The position numbers and the translations under genes were made by a program. 64,000 bases of DNA from positions 237 to 64,236 of IMG/VR virus record IMGVR_UViG_3300024344_000004, one strand, 5' to 3'. The stretch comes from a virus. Positions 24,307 to 59,232 of the stretch are shown one piece after another (positions within the stretch are counted from its first letter, which is position 1; the number at the start of each line of letters is the position of its first letter). A model generated the notes under the pieces. The model worked only from the letters and a program-made list of their open reading frames with translations, was not told the origin of the DNA and did no database searches.

Positions 24307-24594
24307 TTACCATTTAACTTTATTAGCCCAGTATGCAGCAGACATCTTTCCCCTTTTAATATTCTTAGCGTGACGCGCTTTAAAACTCTTTCTTCGGGCT
24401 TTGGATTTCTTGTCTGTTTTCTTACCTGCTGTAGTAACGCCTTGTTGACCGAACCTAATTAGTTTAGTTTTGGTTCCTTCTTTAGCTACAACTACGTGGG
24501 ATTTTTTAGGATGATTAGGGGTTCTTTTAGGTTTGTTATAACCTGATACTCCTGCTCTAGTTAATTTAGCATCTTTTTTCTTTTTAGGTGCCAT
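24307..24594 (-). CDS. Highly basic small protein (marine-phage RRKSF.ARH...SA.YW type)
   Basis: 95 aa, very K/R-rich; motif recalled from marine phages. Confidence 0.6.
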   Translation of the reverse strand: MAPKKKKDAKLTRAGVSGYNKPKRTPNHPKKSHVVVAKEGTKTKLIRFGQQGVTTAGKKTDKKSKARRKSFKARHAKNIKRGKMSAAYWANKVKW

Positions 24595-33370: not shown

Positions 33371-33442
33371 AACCTGCGTAGGTGAGAACCTGCGTGGGTG
33401 AGAAACAGCATGAGTGAGAAACAGCATGAGTGAGAAAGTGAG
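33371..33442 (+). repeat. Tandem 16-bp repeats ending in GTGAG
   Basis: aacctgcgtaggtgag, aacctgcgtgggtgag, aaacagcatgagtgag x2, then aaagtgag. Confidence 0.9.
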
Positions 33443-33443
33443 A

Positions 33444-33474
33444 TTTTCCACTCGTGTGAAAAAACCTTTATATA
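33444..33474 (+). promoter_or_regulatory. Palindrome TTTTCCAC-N4-GTGAAAA + BRE-TATA, copy 1
   Basis: ttttccactcgtgtgaaaaaacctttatata; ATG at 33496. Confidence 0.85.
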
Positions 33475-33495
33475 GGGTAGTGTTCTTGGTATATT

Positions 33496-33618
33496 ATGAG
33501 CAGAGGAGAACCATTTGGCAGTTGCGAGGACTGCGGGCTTGATGAGGTCGAACTATTCGGCGGACTATGTGAAGATTGCGAGTGTGAGATGTTTGCAACA
33601 TTCTGGACAGGAGACTGA
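33496..33618 (+). CDS. 40-aa Zn-finger microprotein
   Basis: MSRGEPFGSCEDCGLDEVELFGGLCEDCECEMFATFWTGD; leaderless. Confidence 0.7.
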   Translation: MSRGEPFGSCEDCGLDEVELFGGLCEDCECEMFATFWTGD

Positions 33619-33654
33619 GAGAAACCCTTATATAGGGTCACTCTATGGTATAGT

Positions 33655-33771
33655 ATGGCAAAACACCCGTGGGCGCATTTATCTTTAAAACAGATTTATG
33701 CCAATACAGAAAAACTAAAAAGAATACGCAAAGAAATGGAAAAGGAATTAGAAGGTGAATTAACTATTTAG
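33655..33771 (+). CDS. 38-aa hypothetical protein with own promoter
   Basis: aaacccttatatagg about 20 nt upstream; MAKHPWAHLSLKQIY... Confidence 0.65.
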   Translation: MAKHPWAHLSLKQIYANTEKLKRIRKEMEKELEGELTI

Positions 33772-33780
33772 ATTCCATGA

Positions 33781-33999
33781 GTCCCCAACACTGTAAGATG
33801 TGGCCGTAGGAGTAGGTGCACCATTTGGAAGTGGCAAGTGTATGAGTGAGTTTAATAAACTTTCCAGCATGGGGACAAGAGGAGACGCCTGACAAGTGAT
33901 GGCGAAGGGCCAGTGGCATAAGTCCGCCCGAGCGTTAAACGTAGCGACGCATCTCCAGCCCAGTGAGCCGGCCTACTACGGTGGGACAGCTGGGCGCCC
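33781..33999 (+). ncRNA. Candidate structured ncRNA A
   Basis: Stems GTCCCCA/TGGGGAC, GGAGACGC/GCATCTCC, GCCCAG/CTGGGC; crossing pairing 33804-33817 with 33971-33981. Confidence 0.6.
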
Positions 34000-34030
34000 T
34001 TTTCCACTCATGTGAAAAAACCTTTATATA
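34000..34030 (+). promoter_or_regulatory. Palindrome + BRE-TATA, copy 2
   Basis: ttttccactcatgtgaaaaaacctttatata; ATG at 34051. Confidence 0.85.
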
Positions 34031-34050
34031 GACACACCCGTTGGTAATAT

Positions 34051-34458
34051 ATGACTAGAAAACATTTTGTAGCAATAGCTCAGTTATTAGCCAAGCATGA
34101 CGCAGACCTTAACATGGTCCGAGACTTTGCCGGTATGTGTGCCGAACACAACCCACGCTTCGACAGAGAAACCTTTATAAAGGCCTGCTCAATGGAGTAA
34201 TATGAGCAAAATACAAGACATGAGAAACACCCACCGTTTCCGCAGAGTAGCACGCAGAACCATAACCAAAAACAAGATTGACTTAGGAGTCCATGAGCAA
34301 CTTATGGCTATCCGTTTGGGTCTTGCTGAGGATGTGAGAAATTGAAAAGCATCTTAGATATTTTAGATGACATGGTCATCTCTGGTATAAGCGAAGCAGG
34401 GGACTACATTGTTCTCTGCGGGTGTGAAGACGCACCTTGCTGTGGGTGCAACCTGTGA
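34051..34458 (+). CDS. Three coupled micro-ORFs (34051-34200 MTRKHFVAIA...NPRFDRETF; 34202-34345; 34342-34458 ending CGCEDAPCCGC)
   Basis: Translated by hand; short or overlapping junctions. Confidence 0.6.
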
Positions 34459-34576
34459 GCTACGACAAACCACTCAAACGCAGTTGGAAAAAAGAAACAA
34501 ATAAGATTATCAAAAAGGCCAGCCAATAGCTCGTTTGTTTTTCGGACACCTCCGGGGGGTAGGGCCTCCCCCCACC

Positions 34577-34607
34577 TTTTCCACTTGCGTGAAAAAACCT
34601 TTATATA
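34577..34607 (+). promoter_or_regulatory. Palindrome + BRE-TATA, copy 3 (preceded by a G6/C6 hairpin)
   Basis: ttttccacttgcgtgaaaaaacctttatata; ATG at 34628. Confidence 0.85.
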
Positions 34608-34627
34608 GACATACTCATTAGTATATT

Positions 34628-34864
34628 ATGAGCAAAAACTTATGTGGTAAGACACGCAAGACTGATGACCCTTATGAGGTCTGGACTGGCCCACGTGGCT
34701 TTGAATGGAGAGTATTAAAAAAATACCAGAACGCTGAGAACGAAGCAAAGAATCCTCACGCCAGATGGTTCTGTGCTGTTAAGTCAGACTTTACCTATGG
34801 TTCTTTTGAACTTGGTGATGTGTATGTCAGTGAGATTAAGAGCATGGGGGAAAAGCTTATATAG
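34628..34864 (+). CDS. Small conserved-looking phage protein (PYEVW...WRVLKKYQ...RWFCAVKS...ELGDVY)
   Basis: 78 aa, leaderless. Confidence 0.7.
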   Translation: MSKNLCGKTRKTDDPYEVWTGPRGFEWRVLKKYQNAENEAKNPHARWFCAVKSDFTYGSFELGDVYVSEIKSMGEKLI

Positions 34865-34886
34865 GGATACCCTATTGGTTATTATC

Positions 34887-35294
34887 GAGTGGGGAGCCCA
34901 AATTACCCCCACTCACTTATGGTTATCGGCCATAACACGTGACCTGAACTTAAAGACAAGAATAGACCATACGCCAACATACGACAAGCAATAACAAACT
35001 CAAGCTGAACAAGTGCTGACCAATCCCTTTCCGGTCGATGCGCATCTTAGTTGATTAACGACGTGTAGCTAAAATTTTGTATCACCTTTTGCCTCACTGA
35101 TTCCCTGTTATAAACTTAAGCGTATACAGCTATGAAGGAATTCTCTTTATCTTTTAGTGTCTCCGTCTCCTGACCGTTCGCGGTTTGACTCGGAGCAGGT
35201 CACACCCTAATGGACAAAACCTAGTTTGTCCTGTGGCAACCGCTCCTCAAGGTAGGCTTTAAATTCTAATTAGAGCCTTGGGTGAAGTTGCCAC
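34887..35294 (+). ncRNA. Candidate structured ncRNA B with its own promoter
   Basis: TATA 34857-34863; starts with GAGTGGGG/CCCCACTC stem; ends with GTGGCAAC/GTTGCCAC stem + T5; no credible ORF. Confidence 0.7.
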
Positions 35295-35295
35295 T

Positions 35296-35326
35296 TTTTC
35301 CACTCTTGTGAAAAAAGCTTTATATA
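35296..35326 (+). promoter_or_regulatory. Palindrome + BRE-TATA, copy 4
   Basis: ttttccactcttgtgaaaaaagctttatata; ATG at 35348. Confidence 0.85.
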
Positions 35327-35347
35327 GGGGTAGCCCCTTGGTAATAC

Positions 35348-35587
35348 ATGAGCCAAGCAACTCAGACTAAGACCAATCTTCCTTGGAAGAATGGAAGCAA
35401 GGAGGTCGACTACTACGTAGAAATCGGCACGACTCCGTATGGAAAATACGGATTATACAAAGAAATGATTCCTGTCGGCACAGGGAGCAGAGGAAGACAC
35501 ATGGAACTCGCTCGTGAGATTCGTCTGTCCAATCCAGAAATCTTTGAGGATTTAGAACTAAGACAAGTTGTCAGTAGGAGCAGATAA
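35348..35587 (+). CDS. Hypothetical protein
   Basis: 79 aa, leaderless. Confidence 0.65.
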   Translation: MSQATQTKTNLPWKNGSKEVDYYVEIGTTPYGKYGLYKEMIPVGTGSRGRHMELAREIRLSNPEIFEDLELRQVVSRSR

Positions 35588-35616
35588 GCTTATAAAGGCA
35601 CACCTATTGGTATAGT

Positions 35617-35949
35617 ATGACTAAAGCAAAGATGGATTACCTTTGGGCTCCAAAGGATGAAAAACTCGTGAGTTCTTTATTGGACTCGCTGGGATTTGCT
35701 CGTGTTGGTGTATCTCAACGATACCCAACCGGAGTAAAGTATGACTGCCTTGTAGCTATATGTGATGTTATCGGTTCAAACGATAAAACAGCATCTATGG
35801 TTGCATCTCGCACTCATGAACTGCAATCCAAACGGAAAGCAACAGGTAAGGCACCTTCAGTTGATTCAGTCGTTTCTGCACTTGCATCTGGTAAGATGTC
35901 AGAAGCTGATTTGAAGAAAGCAATGAAGAAAGCTGGACTATTGAAATAG
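35617..35949 (+). CDS. Hypothetical protein with own promoter
   Basis: 110 aa; aagcttataaagg about 20 nt upstream. Confidence 0.65.
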   Translation: MTKAKMDYLWAPKDEKLVSSLLDSLGFARVGVSQRYPTGVKYDCLVAICDVIGSNDKTASMVASRTHELQSKRKATGKAPSVDSVVSALASGKMSEADLKKAMKKAGLLK

Positions 35950-35965
35950 ATAGATAATAAGCACC

Positions 35966-36260
35966 TGAGCAAGTCAGAAAACTGCTCACCTTATATTTAT
36001 GGAAGTAGCTCTTCCGTAATCGGGTATGGCCGAACAAGTCCGCCACGGACTAAGGCACAGGACTGCGCAAACCGAGAAGCGACTGCTGGAGGAATGCAAA
36101 ACTGGTATGGGTTCTACTATGTAGTGGCATAAACCCATTGGAGGTATACATTAAATCCTCCTACCCATCCTTACATTGACGCCCCTTGACTTCCGTTATC
36201 GAATGCAAAAACATCGAGGAAGGAATGCTTTACCACCGGTGGTATATAAGTCAGGGGCTC
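35966..36260 (+). ncRNA. Candidate structured ncRNA C
   Basis: Serial hairpins TGAGC/GCTCA, GGAAG/CTTCC, AGTCC/GGACT, ATGGGTT/AACCCAT, GGAGG/CCTCC and terminal GCCCCTTGACTT/AAGTCAGGGGC before a T-run. Confidence 0.6.
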
Positions 36261-36268
36261 ATCTCTTT

Positions 36269-36286
36269 TTTTCCACTCAAGTGAAA
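36269..36286 (+). promoter_or_regulatory. Palindrome copy 5, not followed by a TATA box
   Basis: ttttccactcaagtgaaa. Confidence 0.6.
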
Positions 36287-36299
36287 CTTTTTCAAGATG

Positions 36300-36790
36300 C
36301 CTCAGCTCAACAAACCCCTCCTCCTCAGTTCGCTCTACAGAGCTCGTGAGAAATCGTTATCGGGCAGTGAGAAACTGCGCTCTCAGTTCAGGTTCAAACC
36401 AGAACCAATGGTCAGTAGGGCCAGATGAGAAAATAGTCTCAGTTAAGCACAAGCTCTACTAAGATTTTCGGTAGGCTACAATGAGAAAATGCTTAATGGA
36501 GCTTAGTTCGACACGTAATGTGTTCGTGCTCGAACTGTAGTAGTAATAGTTATCAGCCTATATTATCTCAGTTAAGCTTTATTATAATGCTCTACTACGC
36601 AAAGCTCTACTGAGTAATTAAGCTTTACTTAGTTAAGCTTTACTAAGCTCTTTACTTACAGCAATAATATGCATAACTAAGCTATATCTTAATATAGTTA
36701 ATATAGGGAACACGAACTATATAAAGTTTTGCATGAAAAAGCACCCCGTTTTTTATCTCAGTATAAAATCCGTGCGGGGCTCTCAGTCCA
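36300..36790. repeat. Non-coding region dense in CTCAG, TGAGAAA and AAGCT(C/T)TAC short repeats
   Basis: tctcagtt x3, (g/a)tgagaaa x4, aagctctac/aagctttac several times; AT-rich right part. Confidence 0.7.
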
Positions 36791-36832
36791 CAAAGGGAAA
36801 CGCTTATATAGGGGTATATTGATGTAGATACG

Positions 36833-39070: not shown

Positions 39071-41163
39071 ATGAATGGACTGAGGACAGTGAAAATGATT
39101 TCTGTTATGCGTGTGACGATTGGACTGATGCCGACGGTCATGGCAACTGTAAAGATTGTGGCAACAGTTACACTACAGTAGACCCATTCGTCAGTCCGAC
39201 TATAGCAAAGACATACAGTTCACCCGCACCTACTGTCTCAGCACATGGTGACCTTTGGAATAGGGGTTCGGGTTTCACATGGGGTGGTAGTTCATATTGG
39301 TCCGGTGGTGGAGCTACATCATGGGGTGGTTGGTCTCAGTCTACAAACGACAGTGCTCGTATGCTTAAACATAAAAGACATTTAGATTCTCTTTGTAAAG
39401 TAGTAGACCCAACTGTAAAGCATTCATTACATTTCGCAACTGAGTCGAAGAACTATTCGAACATGTCTAATGGAACTATATATGTAGATGGGACTCTCAT
39501 TGAACACGATGATGACAAACTCGACATATTAGCTGGTCTCTCAATACATGAGAAGTTACACTTAGTTCATACTCAACCATTAACTAAATGGGAACGTGAG
39601 TATAGTCACCAAAACAATCTTAGTTCAGCACAGGAAAGATTACTACATAACATATGTAATATCATAGAAGATGAATATATAGAATCTCAGTTAGCTAAGA
39701 CTCATGCCGGATACACTATGTATATTGAGAAGGTTAAACAACACTTCTTTGGTAAGCATGGTCACAAGATAGATGAGTTCAACGGTAATCCTATCGCTGA
39801 CATAATGAATACATTGTTAGCTATGGTAAGATATCCACAATCTATCTCAGCTGACCGTAGAAAGAAACACGCTAAGCATATTCAGTTCTTTGCCCGTGCG
39901 TTAACAGATGCATTAACTGATAGACATTCAACCTTTATGGCTATGGATAGTATTTATTGTTATATGAATCAACTCGCTAAAGAAGAAGCAGAGAAGCATG
40001 AAGGCACCGACGAAGAAGAAATACTACGACGTGCTGATGACAGGCTCAAAGACCTTTTAGGTGAGTGGGGTGAATCAGTTGGTGAAGAAATGTCAGCTGA
40101 AGACATGGAACGTATCAAAGATAGACTTATAGAAAAAGAACGTGACGAAGCTGAACGTGGTGATAGATATGACCGTAAAGAGAAATTGTCTCGAGCTTTG
40201 GATAAGTTCGCAAAAGAACTCGCTGATTATGGTTTAGATAGAGACACTATTTCAGATGCACTCGGTAGAGATATAGATGAGTTAGCTGACAGTGACTATA
40301 CTGAAGAGAAGTGGGATGTGTCCCGTGCTCTCGGTTTGAAACAAGGTGGTAAAGTTACATGGCGTAATCAAAGAGCCTCTTCAGACTATGATAAGAGTAA
40401 ATACACTGAGGCTGAAAGAAATATGAAATCAGCAATTGGTCAACTAAAGAGAAAGATACAACTATATGGTGACACACGTATTAACACCATTCGTAACCAA
40501 CGAAGAGGTAAGTTAGATAAACGTATGCTACATAAGATACCTCTCGGTCGACCCGACTTATTCAAGAATGTAATTATTGACGAAGACAAGCCACTCGATG
40601 TATGTCTCTTAGTCGATGAGTCAGGTAGTATGGGTTCATGGAAGATGGCTAAAGCACGTGAGACTGCGATTGCTTTACGTGAATCACTCAAAGATAATCA
40701 AGCTCTCAACTTATGGGTGTTTGGTCACACAGCTGACGGTTATGAATGGGATGGTAAAGGTGACACTAATATGTCAGTATATTGGTCACCTACATATAAA
40801 TCAGATATAAAGGCTATGGGTGCTATGACAGCACGTAGTGAAAACAGAGATGGTATGGCTATTCTCGCATCAGCTGAAAGAGTCAAAGCTGAGTCACCAT
40901 CAATGGGTAGCAATAAACTTATGATTGTTATCTCAGACGGTGAACCATCAGCAGACAAATACAGATTCCCAATCAGTGTGCCACATACTAAGAAGTGTGT
41001 CAGACACATTGAGGGACAGGGATGGAATGTAATTCAAATAGGCATCTCAGGTGCACGTGAATATATTATGAAAGATATGTTTACTAATTACATCCTGTGT
41101 GATGATACAGCTGACTTACCAACTAAGGTAAGTAAAGTAATTAGAAGGGTGATAAAAGTATGA
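39049..41163 (+). CDS. vWA-domain protein with HExxH motif and N-terminal CxxC pair (CobT-like partner of the AAA)
   Basis: HEKLH; MIDAS LLVDESGSM; LMIVISDGEP; CYAC...CKDC. Confidence 0.85.
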   Translation: MDYGDSIDEWTEDSENDFCYACDDWTDADGHGNCKDCGNSYTTVDPFVSPTIAKTYSSPAPTVSAHGDLWNRGSGFTWGGSSYWSGGGATSWGGWSQSTNDSARMLKHKRHLDSLCKVVDPTVKHSLHFATESKNYSNMSNGTIYVDGTLIEHDDDKLDILAGLSIHEKLHLVHTQPLTKWEREYSHQNNLSSAQERLLHNICNIIEDEYIESQLAKTHAGYTMYIEKVKQHFFGKHGHKIDEFNGNPIADIMNTLLAMVRYPQSISADRRKKHAKHIQFFARALTDALTDRHSTFMAMDSIYCYMNQLAKEEAEKHEGTDEEEILRRADDRLKDLLGEWGESVGEEMSAEDMERIKDRLIEKERDEAERGDRYDRKEKLSRALDKFAKELADYGLDRDTISDALGRDIDELADSDYTEEKWDVSRALGLKQGGKVTWRNQRASSDYDKSKYTEAERNMKSAIGQLKRKIQLYGDTRINTIRNQRRGKLDKRMLHKIPLGRPDLFKNVIIDEDKPLDVCLLVDESGSMGSWKMAKARETAIALRESLKDNQALNLWVFGHTADGYEWDGKGDTNMSVYWSPTYKSDIKAMGAMTARSENRDGMAILASAERVKAESPSMGSNKLMIVISDGEPSADKYRFPISVPHTKKCVRHIEGQGWNVIQIGISGAREYIMKDMFTNYILCDDTADLPTKVSKVIRRVIKV

Positions 41164-41263
41164 ATGATGATAATAATATGAAAGAAGCTCAGTGGTTTAT
41201 ATTAATCGCTGGGTTCATGATGTTATGGATGGTCATGATTATGATGCTGGGTTAAGGGTGACA

Positions 41264-41675
41264 GGTAATAAGTTGAGAATTTATTTTACTTAGTCGGTTT
41301 TGCTCATAGCTCAGCTTATTACCCACCAAACGCACGAAGACTTTGAACTTTGAAGCTCAGTTTGTTTATCAGGCCACGCTGACCGCTCCCTCATTAGAGG
41401 CAACGTCAGTAGTAGGACAGTATAAACAGAGAGGTAGCTATCGGTATGGTGATAGCTGAATACAAAGGAACCAAATATATCGTTTAGCCTAATCATTATG
41501 GCGACGAGTATATGTCAAGCATACCTCAGTATACCCCTGTAAATCTATCGTGACAGTTATGTCAGATGAGTTTGGAATGCTACATAGTAGCGTGGTATAC
41601 GAAAAAAGAAAGAGCACGATAGTTTCAGTTGCGAAGCTACACGACTCTTACTGAGAAGTCGTTCTCTCTTCGTGC
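41264..41675 (+). ncRNA. Candidate structured ncRNA D
   Basis: 14-bp stem 41264-41277/41310-41323; long-range helix GCACGAAGA (41332)/TCTTCGTGC (41667); crossed helices GTATACC/GGTATAC and CTATCGTG/CACGATAG. Confidence 0.7.
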
Positions 41676-41736
41676 ACCACAACCTTTATATAGGATAATC
41701 AAATATATTGAAATATAATCAAAAGGAATTGAAAAT

Positions 41737-42174
41737 ATGCAAACATTTTTACCAACAAAAAACTTTAGAACATCAGCCAAACTATTAGACTATCGTCGTC
41801 TCGGTAAGCAAAGAGTGGAAGGGCTTCAGCTCATCAACTCACTTAGTCCGGACTACGATAAAAAAGGTTGGCTCAACCACCCCGCACGTTTGATGTGGGT
41901 TGGTTACGAAAACGCTTTGAAACATTACACTAACGTAATGATAGAAGAGTGGGTTGCACGTGGATATAACAACACGATGCAATTATATAAAATAGAAGGG
42001 CCGATAGTATACCCTCAATGGTTAGGCTATCCGGAACTGCATAAGTCACATCGAATGAACCTACTTCGTAAGGATTACGACTTTTATAAACAGCACTTCG
42101 ATGACGATGCACAAACGGACCTCACAATCATAAACGAGTATGAATACTATTGGCCACCGGAGAAAGAAAGATGA
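41737..42174 (+). CDS. Pyrimidine-dimer DNA glycosylase (DenV/MSMEG_6728-like)
   Basis: MQTFLP...LDYRRLGKQRVEGLQL...HPARLMWVGYE...SHRMNLLRKD. Confidence 0.88.
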   Translation: MQTFLPTKNFRTSAKLLDYRRLGKQRVEGLQLINSLSPDYDKKGWLNHPARLMWVGYENALKHYTNVMIEEWVARGYNNTMQLYKIEGPIVYPQWLGYPELHKSHRMNLLRKDYDFYKQHFDDDAQTDLTIINEYEYYWPPEKER

Positions 42175-42268
42175 TAAGAGAATTATTAGTGTGGATAGAT
42201 AAGAAGTTTGGTTTGAACCGAACTAAGAAACTTATGATAAGACCACGTAAATACGGAGCAAAGAAAAA

Positions 42269-42726
42269 ATGAACTTAGAACAAGAGAACATGGAACTCAA
42301 AGAGATGTTAGCTGGTGCACAGTTAACTGAGGAAAACTTAAAGGATTACCTTTTCGAGATTTGTGATTATATTCACTACGAGATGCCACTCAAGGAACAG
42401 GACCGATGGCTTGAGAGGATGATTGAACTCGGACTATACACACCGGAGTTTGACTAATGGTCACAACTACAGGCGACGCAGTTCACTTTATGAAGATTGT
42501 TTTAGATTGGTGTTCACCGAAGGTAGCCCGAATGATGATGGATGATTTAGATTTCTACATCGCTGAGACTACTGATAACGAATCAGTTCGTGATTCTATT
42601 AAGATGGTTAGAGAGTTAATCTATGCGAGAGCAGAAGAGAACTTAGAGTTAGAAGCTGAAGAAGCAGAATGGCAAACAGCTCAAGAAATTATAGACGAAC
42701 AGAGAAAGATAGGCAAACCAGAATGA
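42269..42726 (+). CDS. Two small acidic hypothetical proteins (42269-42457, 42457-42726)
   Basis: Coupled ORFs from track. Confidence 0.55.
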
Positions 42727-42940
42727 AGTGTCTCAATAAAAAGTGTAGAGAGAATCTTTATGATATGCCCCCACTTAAACAAGTAACCTGTCCCTACTGT
42801 GGACTAACACAGGTGCACCCTCCAGAATATTAATGTCATTAGCATGGACTGAGTGTAGGAAATGTGGCAAACGTATCTCAATAGGTGAAGATGGTTTGTT
42901 AGACGGAAGATGTTTCCTATGCTCTATAAAGACATTATAA
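42723..42940 (+). CDS. Two Zn-finger microproteins (42723-42833, 42833-42940)
   Basis: MKCLNKKC...CPYCG; MSLAWTECRKCG...CFLC; ATGA/TAATG coupling. Confidence 0.65.
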
Positions 42941-43056
42941 GCTCCACTTAGCAAAGCTTTATATATCTCTAAAGGGGAGATATAATAGAGCATGGTTTAT
43001 AGAGCATGATTAATTAAGCAATTAAGTAGCTCTATACTTACCTCAATATTTGCTCA

Positions 43057-43572
43057 GTGAGGCCCATTATGGGAAGAAAGGATACAGGAAAGAATTTCGA
43101 AAACGAAATAAGAAGAAGCTTGAAAAGCAGTCGCCACATATGGTGGTTTAGAATACAAGATACCAATGACATTAACAGATTCGTCAAAGTCGCAGTCGCT
43201 GAGAAGCAACCCGCCGATTTCTTTACAGTCTACAGAAGTAGACCAATTATGCTTGAGGCTAAAACTTCTCGGAATCTTACTTCTTTTCCTTTACATTATG
43301 GTAATACCCCTGCTATCGCTAAGCATCAGATAAGAGAGGGAGCTAAGTTGGAGAGAGCTGGTGGACTAAGTTTTATCTTGATAAGAAGAGAAGAATACAG
43401 AAACAAAAAGACATATGCAATTACACCATCACAGGCTAAGTATTTATACAGTAAGTCTTTCAAAAGAAAGTCAGTTAAATGGAGCTGGTTTGATGAACAC
43501 GCATACATTGTCGAAAGATTAAAAGCACCCTTGAGGTGGAATTTACAAAAACTATATGAAGAAGCAATATGA
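43057..43572 (+). CDS. Holliday-junction resolvase (RecU/Hjc-like PD-(D/E)XK)
   Basis: GKNFENEI, PADF, LEAKTS, HQ motif. Confidence 0.8.
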   Translation: MRPIMGRKDTGKNFENEIRRSLKSSRHIWWFRIQDTNDINRFVKVAVAEKQPADFFTVYRSRPIMLEAKTSRNLTSFPLHYGNTPAIAKHQIREGAKLERAGGLSFILIRREEYRNKKTYAITPSQAKYLYSKSFKRKSVKWSWFDEHAYIVERLKAPLRWNLQKLYEEAI

Positions 43573-43702
43573 AGAAAAGAGCAACTAAAATACCCTACGA
43601 AGGATATACTCTACCCCCATCAGCTGAGAAGGGTGGTATGTTTGTAGACTTCAATAAGATTATACAGAGAAAACCTGTTAAAAAAGTAAGGATAAAAAAG
43701 AA

Positions 43703-44302
43703 ATGAAAGACATAATGAAAGAATACAGCACAACATTCTACGAATGTTTAGATGCGTGGCCAGATGATATCAAAGAAGATATATACAAACTATATGCATA
43801 CCTCAGAGTGTGTGATGAGATGGTCGAAGGTGAGAAGACACTACATGACTTCAAGAATTGGAGAGATGTTATAGAACAGTTCTATGAAGTTAGTGATAAG
43901 TATCAGTTCGATGGTCAATGGTTAGCTGACTTCCACGTCAGTATGTATCAAGATATGGTAAAGAAAGAACACACAATTGTATCTATGTTAGATTACTGTA
44001 AAGGTTCAGCTGAATCAGTTGGTATGATGATGTCTAAGATATTAGGATGTAACCCACGTTGTGAGATACACGCAAGGGCTCTCGGCAGAGCTTATCAGAT
44101 TATTAACTTCATAAGAGATTATGATGAGGATGTAGCCAATGGTTATCATTACATCACTGATAACTTCAGTGCATACTTAGAGATATTTTATCAAGACATA
44201 GATAATGGTATGGATGGTTTAAATTATATTCCAGAAGAGTTACAAGAGCCTATCATAATGGCTACTAAAAAATATATGGAAGTAGCGGGTGAATTCAACT
44301 AA
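43703..44302 (+). CDS. Compact phytoene/squalene synthase-family protein (CrtB-like)
   Basis: YSTTFY, LYAYLRVCDEMVE, SMYQDM, YCKGSAESVGMMM, ALGRAYQIINFIRDYDED. Confidence 0.8.
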   Translation: MKDIMKEYSTTFYECLDAWPDDIKEDIYKLYAYLRVCDEMVEGEKTLHDFKNWRDVIEQFYEVSDKYQFDGQWLADFHVSMYQDMVKKEHTIVSMLDYCKGSAESVGMMMSKILGCNPRCEIHARALGRAYQIINFIRDYDEDVANGYHYITDNFSAYLEIFYQDIDNGMDGLNYIPEELQEPIIMATKKYMEVAGEFN

Positions 44303-44644
44303 ACCGCCATATTACAAAGCTCTGTGGCACAACTGCAACATCTGTAGGATACATTATATGAGTGAAGAACCTCATTTGAGAGCTTATCTTTGTAATGAGT
44401 GTTGGAATAAGACACCTCAGTTTGTTGTGAAAACACCTAAAAAAGAAATAAAAAAGAAAAACGATATAAATATGAAGACAATAATATTATATACTATAGG
44501 TAATCTATTATGTTTAGGGGTAATCGCATATTATTTGTGGTTTAATTAATTATGAGTGAATGTAATAGATGTTTTAAGAGAGCGTTCTTCGTCGGTATAG
44601 ATGGAAGAAAAAGGTGTGTTCACTGCTCACCATATAAAGAATAG
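44289..44644 (+). CDS. Zn-finger + TM protein (44289-44549) and 30-aa Zn-finger (44552-44644)
   Basis: CNIC...CNEC plus C-terminal TM; MSECNRC...CVHC. Confidence 0.6.
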
Positions 44645-44761
44645 ATGGATATAATACCGTTAGAAATACCAATACGAGACCAACTGAGAGTGTATGCTAT
44701 ACAAGTCTCAGTTTACATTACCATAACCTTTATATAGGGAGGTGGTTTTGGATAAATTACA

Positions 44762-45076
44762 GTGATTAAAATGGATAGAACAAAACAAATCAACGCATTG
44801 ATGGATGCTGTAAAGCATTATCAAAAGACAGGAAAGCACAAACAGGTTAGTATTCAATACAACCCTGTAAACAGAACACAGTTTGACTTCGCTTCATGGA
44901 AGCACAGTTCAGACAGTGACTCTGTAAGGAAAATCCTACCCGAAGACATTAGAATGTCCTCAGAAGGAAACTTCTATGTAGTAGGTAAAGATAACAGATA
45001 CAATCTAAAACAATATGCGTCTCAGTTCGCACAGAGACCACGTGCATATAGATTAGATAGGCTGGTAGTAAAATGA
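44762..45076 (+). CDS. Stand-alone WYL-like domain protein
   Basis: SIQY...RKILP...YVVGKD...RAYRLDRL; own TATA about 44730. Confidence 0.6.
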   Translation: MIKMDRTKQINALMDAVKHYQKTGKHKQVSIQYNPVNRTQFDFASWKHSSDSDSVRKILPEDIRMSSEGNFYVVGKDNRYNLKQYASQFAQRPRAYRLDRLVVK

Positions 45077-45240
45077 AACAAGTAAGTAGTATAAAAAGAA
45101 TAAGTGAATACAAGTCAGTATATATTCCAGATGTAATTTTGGAAGATATGAACATGGGCAGTGGCGACAATGTCGTTTGGTTCCAGAATGATGATGGTCA
45201 TTACCTCATCAAAAAAGTTCAAGTGGATATATTGGATTAA
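45073..45240 (+). CDS. AbrB/SpoVT-like swapped-hairpin DNA-binding microprotein (55 aa)
   Basis: MKQVSSIKRISEYKSVYIPDVILEDMNMGSGDNVVW...YLIKKV; ATGA overlap; not in track. Confidence 0.65.
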   Translation: MKQVSSIKRISEYKSVYIPDVILEDMNMGSGDNVVWFQNDDGHYLIKKVQVDILD

Positions 45241-45242
45241 AC

Positions 45243-46418
45243 ATGAATGAAATGTTAGAAGGCTTTCTAAGTAAAGCTAAAGATAATGAGTCAGCATTAG
45301 ATTTGAAAGAACTTATGACAGCTGACGAATCTCTTCAGTGGGAAATATTAGTAAAAGCTATGGACTCTATCGATATTATGAATATAGGTAGAGACCTTGA
45401 AAAGATTACTAAAACATATCAGTTAGAGAAATGGCAAGAAATGTCTATCTTAGCTTATGTTAAAGTATTAGAGATGATGGTTAGACAGGCAAAAGAGAAT
45501 ACACCAGAAGCTTTCTCACCCGAAGCCCCACAACCACCTCAACACGATTCATACACAGGAAGTATGTTCGGATGAACTGTGGCCTTTGTAAGTGGGAGTT
45601 GGCTCCAGAATATATTAGATATAGAGACGTCAATGGTAATCCATACTGTCAACAATGTTATCAAATCATTGGAGGTCAGATATGAATGAAAGATGGGGAG
45701 CCTTTGACCGTATATGGGCTAAGGGTAAAACAGGTAAGATGGTTCAACGTCTCAAAGAGAAATGCATAATGAGGGGTTTAGAACCAACTGAGGAAAACTG
45801 TCGTGACTATTGGATGGGATATATTCGATATTATGTTGATGGTTGGACAGGACAGGGTCATCATGTGAACCCACGTAAAAACAAAATACTCATGAAACAA
45901 CTAAAAAGGAATCAAAACAGTGACAATAGAAGAAGACAGAAAGGCGGAAGAAAACCACCACACAAGATGGGCGGAAGAAATTCGCAAAAGAAACGCAAGG
46001 TATAGTGAAGAAAGTAATTGGTTTCCATTTGTTCAAAATATAGAAGATGTCTTATCTAGAATAGATAAGATGTCAGAACGCTTTGATGATTTGGAAAACA
46101 AAATAGGAGAGACACAAGGTATGATAAAGAACCTAAGAAAAATATTAATTAAGTTGGAGGTTATCGATGACAGATTCATCTTCTGAGCCCGACATGGGTG
46201 AGATGGCTGGTCAGTTAATGATGGCTAAAATGGATGCGAGTAAGATGACACATCTTTTACGCATCGGGACATTTCAATTAGAGATAAATCCTACATCAGA
46301 AGTTGATGTAGAAAAATTCTTTAGTGAAACATTAGATAAATTAATCTCAGCATATGGTGAAAAACTATTAGAGATTGATATCAAAACCGCTTCTGTGCAC
46401 GGCACAATGCATGGATAA
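45243..46418 (+). CDS. Run of small hypothetical ORFs (45243-45575, Zn-finger 45572-45685, 45682-46005, 45920-46186, 46167-46418)
   Basis: Co-oriented coupled ORFs; MNCGLC...CQQC translated by hand. Confidence 0.55.
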
Positions 46419-46436
46419 TGAAAGGAGGAAATAAAT

Positions 46437-46643
46437 ATGGCAGAAAAAAATAGCTTAGAACTAACAGCCGGATTGTTCCGGAACACTGATAAGAACGGAA
46501 ACATCTACTACTCAGGTAAGTCCGAAGGTGGAGATGAATATGTTATGTTCAGGAATACCTATTGGAAAGAAGGAAGTAACAAACCATACTTCAGACTAAT
46601 GAAAAGAACTGATGGAGCATCTACTCCAACAGTGGAGGACTAA
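46437..46643 (+). CDS. Small beta protein, possibly ssDNA-binding (DUF736-like)
   Basis: GLFRNTDKNGNIYYSG...VMFRN...KPYFRL pattern; GGAGG SD. Confidence 0.45.
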   Translation: MAEKNSLELTAGLFRNTDKNGNIYYSGKSEGGDEYVMFRNTYWKEGSNKPYFRLMKRTDGASTPTVED

Positions 46644-46644
46644 A

Positions 46645-47016
46645 ATGTATGGAAGAGATGCAGACCGTATGATGGATATGTGGTTGGACTTACTATCACA
46701 GATAGAACAAGTTCCCTCAGGCCGTCATGCCCTATCTACACTAAGTAGAAAGGATGTCTCAGTAAATGTAGAGAATGGCACCATAACAATCACAGCTGAA
46801 TTAGCTGGTTTGGATAAAGAACAGGTTGATGTGGAAGTCAGTAGTAGAACAGTCACTATCGTAGCCAACTCAGAGAGAAAGAACTTCAAATGGGAAGAGA
46901 CTTTTCTATTTGAGTTAGACCCAGAGTCTACAAAAGCTACTATGGTGAATGGTATACTAGACTTAGTCATAGAAAAGAAAGTGAAGACATCAGCTAAGAA
47001 AGTAGAGATAGAATGA
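46645..47016 (+). CDS. Small heat-shock protein (HSP20/alpha-crystallin)
   Basis: ITAELAGLDKEQVDVEV...DPESTKATMVNGILDL. Confidence 0.88.
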   Translation: MYGRDADRMMDMWLDLLSQIEQVPSGRHALSTLSRKDVSVNVENGTITITAELAGLDKEQVDVEVSSRTVTIVANSERKNFKWEETFLFELDPESTKATMVNGILDLVIEKKVKTSAKKVEIE

Positions 47017-47684
47017 GTAGAGACACAGATTGGTGCCAATCTACTAAAAGCGAGAGAGTTTGGTTATTAGACTCAATGACTGCTTTAGGACAATTTGCAT
47101 TCATAGCCCCTATACACAGGGTAAAACATTGGAACCCCACTACCAAGAAAAGAAATAAATGCTGGGCAAAAGAAGGTGAGTGTGTGTTTTGTAAGAATAG
47201 CACACCTAAGATAAATGAATTCACCTATGGGTTATACATATCGTCAGATAAGACTATTAAATATCTCACGCTTACAGTAGCATCTCATACACAAGCACAA
47301 CGTATTTTTTCTTCTTTGATAGAGAAAGGCATCAATCCTACTGATGTAGTCTTTGAATTTTCTTTTGGAAAAGTTAAGACTTCTTTCGGTAAGAGTGTCA
47401 ATGGTTATCAGATAGAACAAACTGAGAACGAAGTATTCGTAGCTGAGAAGTTCAGACCAAGTCTAACTAACAGCGAAGAACAATCATATACATGGACTGT
47501 GCCAGAAGAGATAGTAGAGTATCTGAAAGATAAAGATGGAGAACCAATAACAATGATAGATTTATTTTTATTGATGAAAGAACAATTCCCAGCAATAGAA
47601 GAGAAAGAACTTAAAAAGTATGCAGTAAAGTTATGTGAACATAATGTTCTCAACTTATTAAATGCGAGGCAGAAATGGATTTGA
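47013..47684 (+). CDS. Putative Zn-binding single-strand DNA-binding protein
   Basis: H...C...CVFC plus beta-rich core; upstream of the helicase. Confidence 0.45.
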   Translation: MSRDTDWCQSTKSERVWLLDSMTALGQFAFIAPIHRVKHWNPTTKKRNKCWAKEGECVFCKNSTPKINEFTYGLYISSDKTIKYLTLTVASHTQAQRIFSSLIEKGINPTDVVFEFSFGKVKTSFGKSVNGYQIEQTENEVFVAEKFRPSLTNSEEQSYTWTVPEEIVEYLKDKDGEPITMIDLFLLMKEQFPAIEEKELKKYAVKLCEHNVLNLLNARQKWI

Positions 47685-47763
47685 TAGAGTATATAACAAT
47701 AATGATGATTGTAGATGGCCCTATACTAGGTGCCTTTTACTTTTTATATAGGAAAATAACAAA

Positions 47764-49236
47764 ATGAAAAAATATGAAATATACGATTTGCTAAGATATT
47801 TTCACAATGCAAAGAAAAAAGACGGAACACTTTTCCCTATACTAGGAGAGGATTCGTTAGCTCTAACTACAAGTCTATCTTACTTGTTAGAAGATACTAA
47901 CTTCTGTATTAAAGCATACAGTGGAACAGGTAAGACTGTATTGATGGAAGCTGTGGCAAACCTACTTCCAGAGGAGTATGTCTACTCAGTAGAACATATG
48001 TCAGAGACAGCAATATGGTATGATGAGGATAAAATCAACAAAGCTAGATTTGTTTTTATTCCAGAAGCACAAAAGATACCAGAGGGTGTCATGGAAATCA
48101 TTAAAACATGGGCAGACGGGCGAACAGCCCAACGTAAAAAGACAGATGTTACTATCAAGATGGCAGTAACACAGTGGTTAAAACCTAAATATGTTTTGAT
48201 GGCAGTAGCAGTAGAGAATGATAAAGGTTCAGCTATGTTTGATGCTGAGTTAGAACGTAGATGTATGATTATGCATACAAACCCTACAGTCAAACAGACA
48301 GAAAGAGTTATCAAACATAAACTTTTACATTCAGCTTCACCAAAAGCCTCTATGTCTTCAATGTCAGATAAAGAAATAAAAGATTTAAAGAAACACATAC
48401 TAACTACATTGAGAGAAAGAGACGAAGATGATGCGACTGTATTAAAGAATCCATGCGCCCCATTTCTATTTGACGCAATACCATCAGCATTCCCTGTATC
48501 ACGGTCGAAGGTTCAGTATCTATTGAAGTTGATTAATGCTATAGCAAGGTTTTATCCAGATGAGATAGTTAAAGTCAAACAAGATGGTATACAATATGGA
48601 CTAGTATCACCTAAACATAACTGGCTCGGACTGAGAATATATCTTAACTCATTTGTAGAAGAATGCTTACATATGCCAAGTCATGGAACAGACATACTTA
48701 AACTATTTCCCGAAACTAGATTAGATAGGTTTGGTTTTGCAGATAGTGAGACAGTTAAGATGTCAGAGAATGAATTGAAAAAGGCTGCTAAATCAGCTGG
48801 TCTACCATTTACCAAATTAAGACCAGTTATAGCAGGTTTAATGATGACAGGGTTCTTAGAGTGTGATGAAGAAGGAAGTAAAAAACTTTACTATAAGAGC
48901 CCACTCATTACAGAACCAGTATCAAAAATAAATTGGAGTGATTTAATTGAAGAAACGAAAGAGTTTATACGAAAAGAGTGGCCTAAAGTATCTGATGAAT
49001 ACATTGGGCGCAGTTGTAGCAGTATCAGGATTGTTGACCCGTTTAGTGGGGACAACATTGAACTGGGTGCGAGAGCAGAGACAGCGGTAGAAGTTGACAC
49101 TGGTGATTATCCGTCAGTGTTCAAGTCTTCTAGTGACGCTAAGATTAAAGACTACGAGTCTTTTCTACTAAATGCAGAGGGAGATTACAATGACGAAGAA
49201 GACAAAGCAGTCAGAGAATACTTTCAGAAGAAGTAG
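47764..49236 (+). CDS. MCM-like AAA+ P-loop NTPase/replicative helicase
   Basis: AYSGTGKT Walker A, FIPEAQK variant Walker B, ELERR arginine finger. Confidence 0.7.
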   Translation: MKKYEIYDLLRYFHNAKKKDGTLFPILGEDSLALTTSLSYLLEDTNFCIKAYSGTGKTVLMEAVANLLPEEYVYSVEHMSETAIWYDEDKINKARFVFIPEAQKIPEGVMEIIKTWADGRTAQRKKTDVTIKMAVTQWLKPKYVLMAVAVENDKGSAMFDAELERRCMIMHTNPTVKQTERVIKHKLLHSASPKASMSSMSDKEIKDLKKHILTTLRERDEDDATVLKNPCAPFLFDAIPSAFPVSRSKVQYLLKLINAIARFYPDEIVKVKQDGIQYGLVSPKHNWLGLRIYLNSFVEECLHMPSHGTDILKLFPETRLDRFGFADSETVKMSENELKKAAKSAGLPFTKLRPVIAGLMMTGFLECDEEGSKKLYYKSPLITEPVSKINWSDLIEETKEFIRKEWPKVSDEYIGRSCSSIRIVDPFSGDNIELGARAETAVEVDTGDYPSVFKSSSDAKIKDYESFLLNAEGDYNDEEDKAVREYFQKK

Positions 49237-49504
49237 ACTTCCTAAGCGAGATGAGATGTTTGCAGTAGTCATAGAGATGTCAGGGGGTTCTAGAATGAGA
49301 GCCCTCTGTGCAGACAGTAAAACCCGCATGATTAGAATCGGTGGTAAACTGAAGAAAAGAATGTGGTGTAGAGAGAATGATTTAATTATAGTTAAGCCTT
49401 GGGTTATACAGAGTGACCAAAAGGCAGACTTAGTTTATAGGTATCTCCCTACTGAGAGAAAGAATATAAGTAAAAAAATACCAGAGGAGTTAAACATATG
49501 GTGA
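49190..49504 (+). CDS. eif1a: Archaeal translation initiation factor aIF-1A (eIF1A)
   Basis: RLPKR.EMFAVV.EMSGGSRMRALC.D.KTRMIRIGGKLKKRMW.RE.DLIIVKPW..Q.DQKADLVYRY. Confidence 0.93.
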   Translation: MTKKTKQSENTFRRSRLPKRDEMFAVVIEMSGGSRMRALCADSKTRMIRIGGKLKKRMWCRENDLIIVKPWVIQSDQKADLVYRYLPTERKNISKKIPEELNIW

Positions 49505-56208: not shown

Positions 56209-56950
56209 ATGGCAACATTGAAAAGAATAGAGAAACGTATGAACGATGTAGAAGCATGGGTAAAAGAATTTGAGAAAGGCACTGGTCCTGCTCAAGTTAT
56301 GGATAATATAAGTTGGTTATTAACACAGCTACGTATGACTGGAGAAAGGCTGCAAAGCACTGAACAGAACCTAATGCAACTACAACAAGGTATGCAAAGT
56401 AATACTGAAATAGTTCAAGGCTTTGTTGAGAAGAATGATTTAGTTCATGATTGGCAAGCACACCTTGCAGAAATACAAAAGGAGAACGAAGATGCCCTTC
56501 AAGAGCAAGAAACAGAGAGCTTGGATGCACAAGAACAAGCCGGCGATGGCGAAGAGATGGGAGAAGGAGACGCCTAAAGGCGCTAAACTTCCAACTAAAG
56601 TCAAACGTAAGGCAAAAAGAAAAACTACGGGACGCCGTAAAAAGAAAAAGTGATATCATGGTAGATAAAAAAGCTAGCAAAAAAGACGTTGACGTCAAAG
56701 AAGAAGTAAAACCTAAGACCGTCATGAAGATGATTGGTGGTAGGATGAGAGAGATAGAGGTAGAATAATGGCCAAGAAAGAAGTAAAGAAAGAAACTAAA
56801 AAGGCTGCGCCTAAAAAGAAAGAAGTAGTAGCTAATCCATGGGATGGGTTAGAAGGACCTACTAAACATCCTGACCACAGAGGAAAGGATATATATCTTA
56901 AAGATGGTGTTCACGGATATTTCGTGGATGGTGTCTTTAAAAAAGTGTGA
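56209..56950 (+). CDS. Coiled-coil protein (56209-56577) and small basic proteins (56492-56653 MPFKSKKQRAWM..., about 56657-56768, 56768-56950)
   Basis: Coupled ORFs, K/R-rich. Confidence 0.55.
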
Positions 56951-56964
56951 GTTTATTAACTTCA

Positions 56965-57031
56965 CAAAGTCGATGTAAGTGTGATTCACCAAAGAATTGC
57001 ACTTGCGCTCGGCGTGTCTTAACAGACTTTA
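56965..57031 (+). ncRNA. Compact structured element upstream of the RNR promoter
   Basis: AAAGTC/GACTTT enclosing a 13-bp stem GTAAGTGTGATTC/GAATTGCACTTGC with three G-U pairs. Confidence 0.45.
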
Positions 57032-57109
57032 AATAGTATTTTTTAAAATTAGAAAAAAGCTTATATAGTAGCTCAAACTATAAAATGAAACCGCAATTGG
57101 AGTGGTAAA

Positions 57110-58975: not shown

Positions 58976-58977
58976 AC

Positions 58978-59232
58978 ATGGAATTCGAAACAGATATTAC
59001 TGGATACGGCCGCAAGATGGGTCGAGACGCAGGACTTACTTCTGAAGGTAGAATAGATTCCGTCGTTAAAGTAGGTGGTGGAGAATTTGAAGGTATGCAA
59101 CCAGCAGGAACCATATCTGCCAGAACTATGAACCCCGGTGGTTCTGAAGTATCTGGTGGTGGAGCAAACGCTGGAGACTACGCACCTACCAAAGCTAGAA
59201 ACGATGGAATTATTGGTAATCCAAGAGACTAA
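58978..59232 (+). CDS. Gly-rich hypothetical protein
   Basis: 84 aa, converges on the tail genes. Confidence 0.5.
   Translation: MEFETDITGYGRKMGRDAGLTSEGRIDSVVKVGGGEFEGMQPAGTISARTMNPGGSEVSGGGANAGDYAPTKARNDGIIGNPRD

Follow-up and report, generated by a model that had tools for sequence, protein, structure and literature searches.

A conserved 20-bp palindrome at the promoters of a tiny-gene array in a marine archaeal virus: a candidate operator

Introduction

The window analysed here is a stretch of 64,000 nucleotides (nt) from the IMG/VR virus record IMGVR_UViG_3300024344_000004 (positions 237 to 64,236, one strand); the whole record, labelled G000 below, has a length of 69,348 bp and is rated 100% complete. 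An array of very small open reading frames (ORFs) and structured RNAs in this window contains five copies of a 20-bp palindrome, TTTTCCAC-N4-GTGAAAA, four of which directly precede a promoter of archaeal type, with a B recognition element (BRE) and a TATA box. The question raised by this locus is what the palindrome does: whether it is bound by a regulator, ends the transcription unit in front of it, provides the homology by which small genes are shuffled, belongs to a replication origin, or is only carried along in duplicated promoters. An earlier description made from the letters alone (the sequence-only reading) had compared the cassettes with the promoter-early stem-loop (PeSL) elements of T4-type phages and suggested a recombination-shuffled early array controlled by a dimeric factor. 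To our knowledge, hardly anything has been learned about how uncultivated marine viruses of archaea control their transcription. The distribution and conservation of the palindrome reported below point to an operator for a dimeric DNA-binding protein as its best reading. The labels G001-G015 and G320 denote related genomes, and L labels (L107, L111, L114-L127) denote related loci.

Copies of the palindrome and their promoters

Exact matches to TTTTCCAC-N4-GTGAAAA begin at positions 33444, 34000, 34577 and 35296 (PAL1 to PAL4). The fifth copy listed in the sequence-only reading, PAL5 at 36269, is present as well, with one mismatch (right arm GTGAAAC instead of GTGAAAA). The chance expectation is 0.19 matches per window, and the observed count was reached in none of 100 shuffled sequences. 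All five copies lie within 2.8 kb, and there is no sixth copy in the whole record.

Copies 1-4 adjoin a near-identical box AA(C/G)CTTTATATAG, as had been described, in which ACC or AGC is followed by TTTATATAG; together these four promoter-abutting copies have 34 nt in common at 88-94% identity (repeat family D4). The gap between palindrome and TATA box is exactly 7 nt in each of them, and the ATG follows 27-28 nt past the start of TTATATAG, i.e., 19-20 nt past the final G of the box, slightly less than the 20-22 nt given earlier. Relative to this leaderless ATG the palindrome spans about -52 to -33, with its A-rich right arm entering the BRE. Folded as RNA, it is predicted to form only a weak hairpin (-2.4 kcal/mol).

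Between 33468 and 35590, eight promoters conform to a single consensus (an A-run resembling a BRE, CTT(T)ATATAG(G), a variable stretch of about 10 nt, TTGGTA(T/A)(T/A)N(T/C), ATG), their TATA boxes starting 27-28 nt before an ATG or before the start of the non-coding RNA B. They head F4, a 38-aa ORF, F0, F5, F7, RNA B, F9 and F10. The palindrome is carried by four of the eight, namely those behind a non-coding structured element. The four palindrome-less promoters (33628, 34175, 34857 and 35590) lie in or just past the end of the preceding ORF; neither these nor the BRE/TATA-like boxes outside the array have the palindrome, in line with the earlier remark that other promoters lack it. A sigma-70-like match at the promoters ends directly at the ATG and therefore cannot serve those ORFs.

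The structures in front of the palindromes are the 3' hairpin of RNA A (copy 2), a G6/C6 hairpin (copy 3), the 3' part of RNA B (copy 4) and the manA RNA plus a long hairpin (copy 5), so that the description of four of the five copies as lying behind a hairpin or structured RNA holds for copies 2-5. Copy 1 is preceded by 16-nt tandem repeats containing GTGAGAAA. The composite of structured RNA or hairpin, palindrome, BRE/TATA and leaderless ATG is real, and the array may be read as four putative mini-units, each made up of a palindrome, a promoter, one to three tiny genes (some with a plain promoter of their own) and a structured RNA or hairpin.

Conservation across relatives

In IMG/VR, the exact pattern was found at 16 loci. 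When only the palindrome was searched for, four further contigs of this clade were recovered, along with about 28 single matches in unrelated contexts, the latter a chance-level number. Arrays of the palindrome are restricted, within all of IMG/VR, to the G000 clade. The 15 related records contain the motif only in one array, in 3-6 copies at homologous positions, and a control with the reversed pattern gave no match in them. Copies that at first seem absent from relatives are variants with one or two mismatches.

Arm and spacer statistics are based on 16 genomes, which yield 61 unique copies. The left arm reads TTTTCCAC in 60 of them. The right arm opens with GTG(A/G)A throughout the set and is GTGAAAAA in 45 and GTGGAAAA in 5, being degenerate only in the promoter-less last copies (the counterparts of PAL5 in relatives retain the left arm and have GTGAAAC/T, GTGGGC or GCGGAA on the right). 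Information content amounts to 2 bits per position in the arms and to 0.2-1.2 bits in the spacer, in which positions 1 and 4 are nearly free, position 2 is C in 49/61 and position 3 is G in 54/61. The flanks and the stretch from TATA box to ATG vary across the copies. Among the 40 unique copies that abut a promoter, the gap from GTG(A/G) to TTTATATA is exactly 7 nt. The sequence-only reading had held that a spacer as conserved as the arms would speak against a dimer site; the arms turned out to be near-invariant and the spacer variable, though its centre is mostly CG. A non-pairing C/A position between the arms is retained in 45 of the 61 copies, and this conserved mismatch, together with the weakness of the predicted hairpin, indicates that it is the sequence and not the pairing that is conserved.

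The same data bear on the idea that the palindrome has no function of its own and is carried along in recently duplicated, gene-converted promoter copies. The high identity of the four promoter-abutting copies (family D4) would fit such an origin. The arms, however, are invariant over 16 genomes in which the flanks, spacer positions 1 and 4 and the TATA-to-ATG stretch have diverged, the promoter-less fifth copy is maintained at the same place, and the core of the palindrome persists in the divergent G320 and L111. This idea, already disfavoured, is scarcely credible.

In the more distant G320 (66 kb, 94% complete) and L111, only the core CCAC-N4-GTGG is found, at equivalent boundaries. The genes and the core promoter recur in sister lineages, where the palindrome is either absent or reduced to the core CCAC-N4-GTGG, placed farther upstream. 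The palindrome appears to be a lineage-specific addition to an older hairpin-plus-promoter cassette.

A second type of promoter stands before F4 in one subgroup (first palindrome of G005, G007, G008, G009 and G013-G015; about position 42985 in G320). It is composed of the palindrome, 30-45 nt, a conserved AAAAAACGCGAGCGGGATT block and then TTTATATACCCC, and is preceded by a GGGGGTATATAAACCCCC hairpin that can also be read as a TATA box on the opposite strand.

A candidate operator for a dimeric protein

The 20-bp element, TTTTCCAC-N(CG)N-GTGAAAAA, is best read as an operator for a dimeric, sequence-specific DNA-binding protein of viral or host origin, a reading to which we assign a probability of roughly 0.55. 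It is suggested by the inverted, near-invariant half-sites with centres about 10-11 bp apart, the looser spacer, the fixed position next to the BRE at the promoter-abutting copies of the clade and the restriction to a subset of promoters and to one clade; dyad symmetry, conserved half-sites and a less conserved spacer (with a preference for central CG) are the features of a dimeric operator. The weakness of the hairpin at the RNA level likewise favours a dimeric protein that binds DNA. The element is not needed for the core promoter, as the four other promoters of the same array and the orthologous promoters in relatives (66-80% CobS identity) are without it. The archaeal setting of the virus and the precedent of a conserved block in front of the BRE in the HF2 repeats (see below) are further points in favour.

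Such an operator would have, on its upstream side, the terminator-like hairpin or structured RNA that closes one small unit and, on its downstream side, the BRE/TATA of the following unit. The first promoters of four consecutive, presumably early mini-units would thereby come under one shared control, which could be activation or shut-off, and the internal promoters at 33628, 34175, 34857 and 35590 would be left free of it. The bound protein could assist the recruitment of TFB/TBP or compete with them, and the promoter-less fifth copy would mark the end of the array. Because that copy has no promoter and the placement in G320 is looser, the bound protein may also mark the boundaries of units, for example as a roadblock behind the weak runs of four to five T.

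Several observations weigh against an operator. The fifth copy is without a promoter. The core palindrome of G320 and L111 lies 17-35 nt from the TATA box, so that function would not be strictly tied to a fixed promoter geometry; the gap is 7 nt at the 40 unique clade sites and 17-45 nt at the others, and helical phasing, considered as an explanation, was rejected, as the gaps observed (7, 17, 26, 30, 33, 35, 39, 41 and 45 nt) show none. The spacer is not wholly free, given its fairly conserved central CG. No significant DNA-binding domain was detected in about 50 viral ORFs searched against Pfam (subsets also against PHROGs and NCBIfam). A 55-aa ORF (45073-45240), the only AbrB/MazE-like one found, resembles AbrB/MazE-type swapped-hairpin proteins (atlas score 0.88, with all ten best family matches in agreement), but, although present in G001, G002 and G005, it is missing from G003 and G006, which carry the palindrome, and was dismissed as the general binder. 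Among 301 Nitrososphaeria genomes the motif shows no enrichment: four of them matched, about as many as with the reversed control. Finally, one contig from RNA-library runs crosses PAL4 and one starts upstream of a TATA box; contigs of this kind cannot settle RNA starts, RNA ends or DNA contamination.

Other leads to a binding protein come from a single gene-presence contrast, in which G000 and three palindrome-bearing genomes were compared with G320. Specific to the palindrome-bearing set were two ORFs, one of 95 aa and very basic (minus strand, 24307-24594), the other of 37 aa and Cys-rich; both are weak leads as candidate binders. The block 56209-59232, which includes the ribonucleotide reductase gene and is not in G320, was discounted, as G320 is possibly incomplete there. 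The structures that AlphaFold predicted for F5, a single long basic helix, and for F10, which is helical, had a predicted local distance difference test value of about 66 and were uninformative, and the F10 model had no match in PDB. The 95-aa protein is extremely rich in Lys/Arg, matches DUF5754 weakly (E = 7e-4) and shares 87-94% identity with its counterparts in three palindrome-bearing relatives; it may be a DNA-condensing or virion-packaged protein. A reading of the palindrome as a restriction site was discarded, as CACNNNNGTG is not avoided (15 sites versus 10.6 expected).

Upstream hairpins and termination

The structured elements in front of the palindromes raise the alternative of a terminator or insulator, in which the upstream unit would be ended by a GC hairpin and the T-run of the left arm behind it, and the palindrome, with or without bound protein, would keep transcription from reading through into the next promoter. 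The 50 nt upstream of the copies fold at a median of -13.9 kcal/mol versus -7.6 kcal/mol in control windows, and in most cases 1-8 nt separate the last stem from the T-run. Moreover, the promoter-less PAL5 retains its T-rich left arm in every genome, and in G320 the core palindrome keeps its place beside the upstream hairpin at variable distances from the TATA box. The T-run itself, however, is only 4-5 nt long in 55 of 62 sites; an intrinsic terminator has a GC-rich stem followed at once by at least five T, and a scan for terminators of bacterial type reported none at the five sites. A T-run signal also leaves the invariant CCAC...GTG core unexplained, PAL1 of G000 follows no strong hairpin (-4 kcal/mol), and the contig that runs across PAL4 is a further, weak point in the same direction. 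Oligo-T termination of the archaeal kind is possible at these sites, but termination or insulation by a palindrome that has no part in promoter control is unlikely.

Gene order and shuffling

Clustering of the ORFs showed a backbone common to 15 of the 16 close genomes, in the order F4, RNA A, F0, F5, F6, hairpin, F7, RNA B, F9, F10 and manA. The exception is G012: its first palindrome is followed by a new gene, RNA A is preceded by an F0-like gene, and F4 has its place after the second palindrome. At either end of the moved F4 segment, the junction lies in sequence to which two promoter repeats fit equally well. One additional cassette of palindrome, promoter and 29-aa ORF is present in each of G007 and G009, and F35 (84 aa) occurs at two different locations with no flanking promoters. 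A search with the CobS-like protein reached relatives at 53-80% identity that keep F0, F4, F5, F7, F9, F10 and F13 in rearranged form: F5 is ahead of F0 in L107, and F10 is inverted in nine loci. Altered orders and orientations were recorded in L107, L114-L127 and G320 (40000-48000). These distant relatives have the same core promoter, often directly behind a GC hairpin, and the full palindrome was not found in them. The array region would therefore seem plastic over long times, with the promoter repeats as plausible crossover points.

The sequence-only reading had proposed shuffling of the array by recombination, with breakpoints expected in the repeat. In its strict form, that of a mobile, PeSL-like cassette, the palindrome would supply the homology or the site for recombination by which small genes are excised, inserted and reordered. 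The layout of hairpin or structured RNA, conserved block, strong promoter and tiny ORF fits the logic of PeSLs (PMC2839356), as do the exchange of F4 and F0 in G012, with both junctions within promoter repeats, the extra cassettes of G007 and G009, and the occurrence of the same genes, even of the manA RNA, in other orders and orientations in the wider family. Against this stand the constant order in 15 of the 16 close genomes, the position of the junctions within a promoter repeat of about 45 nt that palindrome-less promoters have as well, and the move of F35 without a flanking promoter. The most heavily shuffled relatives are without the full palindrome, so any shuffling is tied to hairpin-promoter repeats in general and not to the palindrome, which is neither necessary for the plasticity nor specially tied to it. 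Invariant arms around a variable spacer suit a binding site rather than a homology requirement, and no credible mini-circle or deletion junction was present among the contigs from RNA-library runs; a contig joint from 33608 to 34847 (two promoter repeats, divergent contig) is best read as mapping ambiguity and was rejected as a real junction. The claim of shuffling is thus weakly supported as far as the G012 exchange and the extra cassettes go, and a mobile cassette built on the palindrome is quite improbable.

Features of the array

The features of the array are listed in Table 1. F4 had no significant match in Pfam, the best being a zinc-finger model (E = 0.13). RNA A lies within contigs from RNA-library runs and is conserved in relatives according to blastn. 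The contigs come from four runs, three of them recorded as RNA and one guessed; their coverage is patchy and takes in portions of RNA A, RNA B and manA as well as some ORFs. The stretch is also contained in DNA runs (X1-X15). One contig of run X19 (the run whose RNA status is guessed) starts exactly at 34885, 28 nt after the TATA start at 34857, and has the highest depth in the region; this start hints, weakly, at a promoter belonging to RNA B itself. In 9 of 11 relatives the manA RNA occupies the interval from F10 to the last palindrome, but in G320 it lies upstream of F4. The manA RNA family has been described in marine bacteria and cyanophages; here the RNA sits in a virus with archaeal-type promoters and an aIF-1A.

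Table 1. Features of the palindrome array in the window
Feature	Coordinates	Strand	Description
PAL1	33444..33463	+	TTTTCCAC-tcgt-GTGAAAAA; exact match; orthologous copy in relatives
PAL1 promoter	33464..33495	+	BRE/TATA (ACC-TTTATATAG) and TTGGTATATT element; TATA start 28 nt before ATG
F4	33496..33618	+	ORF for 40-aa CxxC...CxxC protein (four Cys), leaderless ATG; orthologues in 14 genomes
Palindrome-less promoter and 38-aa ORF	33622..33771	+	Promoter AAACCCTTATATAGG; ORF 33655-33771; repeat families D1, D2
RNA A	33781..33999	+	GC-rich, structured (fold prediction); terminal hairpin 4 nt before T-run of PAL2
PAL2	34000..34019	+	TTTTCCAC-tcat-GTGAAAAA; exact match
PAL2 promoter and F0	34020..34200	+	Promoter boxes; ORF of 49 aa, ATG 34051
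Palindrome-less promoter, F5 and F6	34169..34458	+	Promoter within 3' end of F0; F5 47 aa, 34202-34345 (alignment A1); F6 38 aa, 34342-34458
G6/C6 hairpin	34554..34573	+	Fold prediction; 3 nt before T-run of PAL3; conserved in relatives
PAL3	34577..34596	+	TTTTCCAC-ttgc-GTGAAAAA; exact match
PAL3 promoter and F7	34597..34864	+	Promoter boxes; ORF of 78 aa, ATG 34628
Palindrome-less promoter and RNA B	34851..35295	+	Promoter AAAAGCTTATATAGG; non-coding RNA B about 34885-35290; no ATG at leaderless spacing
PAL4	35296..35315	+	TTTTCCAC-tctt-GTGAAAAA; exact match
PAL4 promoter and F9	35316..35587	+	Promoter boxes; ORF of 79 aa, ATG 35348
Palindrome-less promoter and F10	35584..35949	+	ORF of 110 aa, ATG 35617; alignment A2
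manA RNA	35997..36171	+	Rfam RF01745; 62.8 bits versus gathering score 55.2
Long hairpin	36177..36261	+	Fold prediction; followed by T7 run into PAL5
PAL5	36269..36287	+	TTTTCCAC-tcaa-GTGAAAC; one mismatch; no TATA box behind; array end

Flanking repeats and a possible origin

Both flanks of the array contain further repeats. Upstream (33371-33440), three 16-nt tandem units end in GTGAGAAA, which resembles the right arm of the palindrome. Downstream (36290-36800), about 500 nt have no conserved ORF and contain CTCAG/TGAGAAA motifs, AAGCT(T/C)TACT repeats and an AT-rich stretch, as well as a leftward TATA-like box at 36717-36730. These repeats may represent a replication origin or the sites of another regulator.

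In an origin-related alternative, the arms would resemble an origin recognition box (ORB) and be read by a winged-helix protein of the Orc1/Cdc6 type from the host, and the array with its flanking repeats would be part of the viral origin. The left arm contains TTTCCAC, the core of the Pyrococcus ORB/mini-ORB (TTTCCACTGGAA; PMC1904270), and the flanks are iteron-like, with GTGAGAAA three times upstream and twice downstream, CTCAGYTC three times just downstream of PAL5 and an AT-rich repeat region at 36500-36730. The array is also situated about 1.6-2 kb into the rightward arm of the genome, beyond the switch of coding strand and GC skew near 31.8 kb. The ORB dyad (TTCCA-N-TGGAA), however, has abutting arms and a G-string, whereas the palindrome has its arms 4 nt apart and lacks a G-string. 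Its exact 7-nt distance from TATA boxes speaks for a function in transcription, the virus was not found to have a gene for Orc1/Cdc6, and an identity of 8 nt with the ORB of a distant archaeon is possibly due to chance. An ORB-like role is a very faint prospect, and so is its extension, in which the palindrome would recruit a host Orc1/Cdc6-type protein and couple the four early mini-operons and their boundaries to origin firing in the AT-rich 36290-36800 region.

The virus and its host

G000 is a tailed virus, for which an archaeal host is well supported. Genes for structural proteins (terminase, portal, HK97-type capsid, tape measure and a collagen-like fibre) occupy the minus strand up to about 31.4 kb. 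The plus strand from about 32 kb onward encodes the very small ORFs, followed by a CobS/CobT-like pair, a helicase, a family B polymerase, a primase and a B12-dependent ribonucleotide reductase. No close relative was found in INPHARED by DNA, TerL or PolB.

An archaeal host, as the sequence-only reading had it, is borne out by an aIF-1A-type initiation factor encoded at 49190-49504, which scores 107.5 bits against NCBIfam NF003084 (cut-off 91); bacterial IF-1 models in the NCBIfam scan did not match it. Operons on both strands are preceded by boxes of the form (A)AA(C/G)CTT(T)ATA(T/A)AG(G). The host assignment rests on this factor, on the BRE/TATA boxes on both strands and on the fact that a sigma-70 reading of the promoters is unusable. 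The closest cellular aIF-1A found is a Nitrosopumilales homologue of only 42% identity.

The viral aIF-1A has hundreds of homologues in metagenomes, of which the 120 listed share 66-91% identity with it. One copy with 82% identity (L040) is on a 10.9-kb contig, probably viral and mis-binned, within a metagenome-assembled genome of 'Maricaulis sp.'. In the replication arm, positions 43703-44302 and 46612-47016 hold two genes that look auxiliary, one resembling squalene/phytoene synthase (PF00494, 3.3e-23) and a small one of Hsp20 type (PF00011, 1e-7).

Significance

The palindrome is a sharply defined and testable cis-element of 20 bp, present in five copies and confined to one clade, and it divides eight otherwise identical promoters into two classes. 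As such it offers a handle by which the first regulator of such a virus could be sought with DNA-affinity methods. The relatives indicate that tiny genes and structured RNAs, including manA, are independent, promoter-bounded modules that have been reordered over evolution, and hairpin-promoter cassettes now extend from haloarchaeal viruses and T4-type phages to a group of marine archaeal viruses. The kind of element was already known, and no change of paradigm is implied.

Comparison with known systems

Dyad operators are familiar from archaea, where a site activates or represses depending on the side of the TATA box on which it lies. The Thermococcales glycolytic motif of TrmBL1 is a dyad, TATCAC-N5-GTGATA, near the BRE/TATA. 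It resembles the palindrome in its inverted CAC...GTG half-sites, short spacer and proximity to the core promoter, and differs from it in the spacer (5 nt versus 4 nt here) and the outer arms; the site described here is, in addition, viral and clade-specific. No TrmB-like or other factor could be linked to the palindrome.

The PeSLs of T4-type phages (Arbiol et al. 2010; Comeau et al. 2014) combine a terminator-like stem-loop with a strong promoter and recur among the tiny ORFans of a plastic region (PMC2839356, PMC4122927), and their mini-circles as well as their promoter and terminator activities have been demonstrated experimentally (PMC2839356, PMC4122927). Apparent likenesses are the composite of predicted stem-loop and putative promoter between tiny ORFs and the few rearrangements between relatives that end within the repeat. 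PeSLs, however, have sigma-70 promoters and Shine-Dalgarno sites, whereas the present cassettes have BRE/TATA and a leaderless ATG; PeSLs are without a separate dyad operator; and gene order is mostly constant among the close relatives of G000. The cassettes of G000, for their part, are recognized from sequence.

Among archaeal viruses, an analogy to PeSLs is not new. For HGTV-1 (Sencilo et al. 2013, as summarised in PMC3950731), a conserved TATA box-like region with an inverted repeat has been likened to PeSLs, with proposed roles in transcription regulation and genome shuffling, so that the framing of the present array as the first archaeal analogue had a precedent. Direct examination of the HGTV-1 genome showed 15 copies between small minus-strand ORFs at 128.7-140.5 kb, each with a GC-rich stem of 9-10 bp, a loop of at most about 1 nt (CTCCTCGTG-C-CACGAGGAG) and TATA-like boxes on both sides. 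Both are tailed viruses of archaea in which many small ORFs each lie behind a TATA-like box beside an inverted repeat. The repeat of HGTV-1 is a true GC-rich hairpin, whereas that of G000 is an AT-rich dyad, split by 4 nt and weak in folding, beside a separate GC hairpin. A search of HGTV-1 for the palindrome with one mismatch gave a single match, at chance level, and the motifs have no sequence in common.

Among systems with an experimental footing, the class I intergenic repeats of halovirus HF2 and other haloferacalesviruses (Russ, Pfeiffer & Dyall-Smith 2021) come closest to the palindrome cassettes. These repeats of 56-58 bp, present in about seven copies among early and middle genes, are experimentally proven promoters with a BRE, a TATA box at about -26 and conserved virus-specific blocks (PMC8707807). 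Basal activity does not require their alpha block, which lies upstream of the BRE and which the authors suspect of binding viral regulators, and the positions of the repeats are conserved among relatives (PMC8707807). Against the proven promoters of HF2, those of G000 have been recognized by their sequence. The word 'palindrome' does not occur in the HF2 paper (PMC8707807), whereas the upstream block of G000 is a discrete 20-bp dyad, which only half of the like promoters carry and of which one copy is promoter-less; the host of G000 is marine as opposed to a haloarchaeon, and its transcripts appear to be leaderless. In both, an archaeal tailed virus has a multi-copy BRE/TATA repeat with a conserved block upstream, at positions that are conserved among relatives; in G000 the repeat stands at the canonical distance and its virus-specific block is confined to the array.

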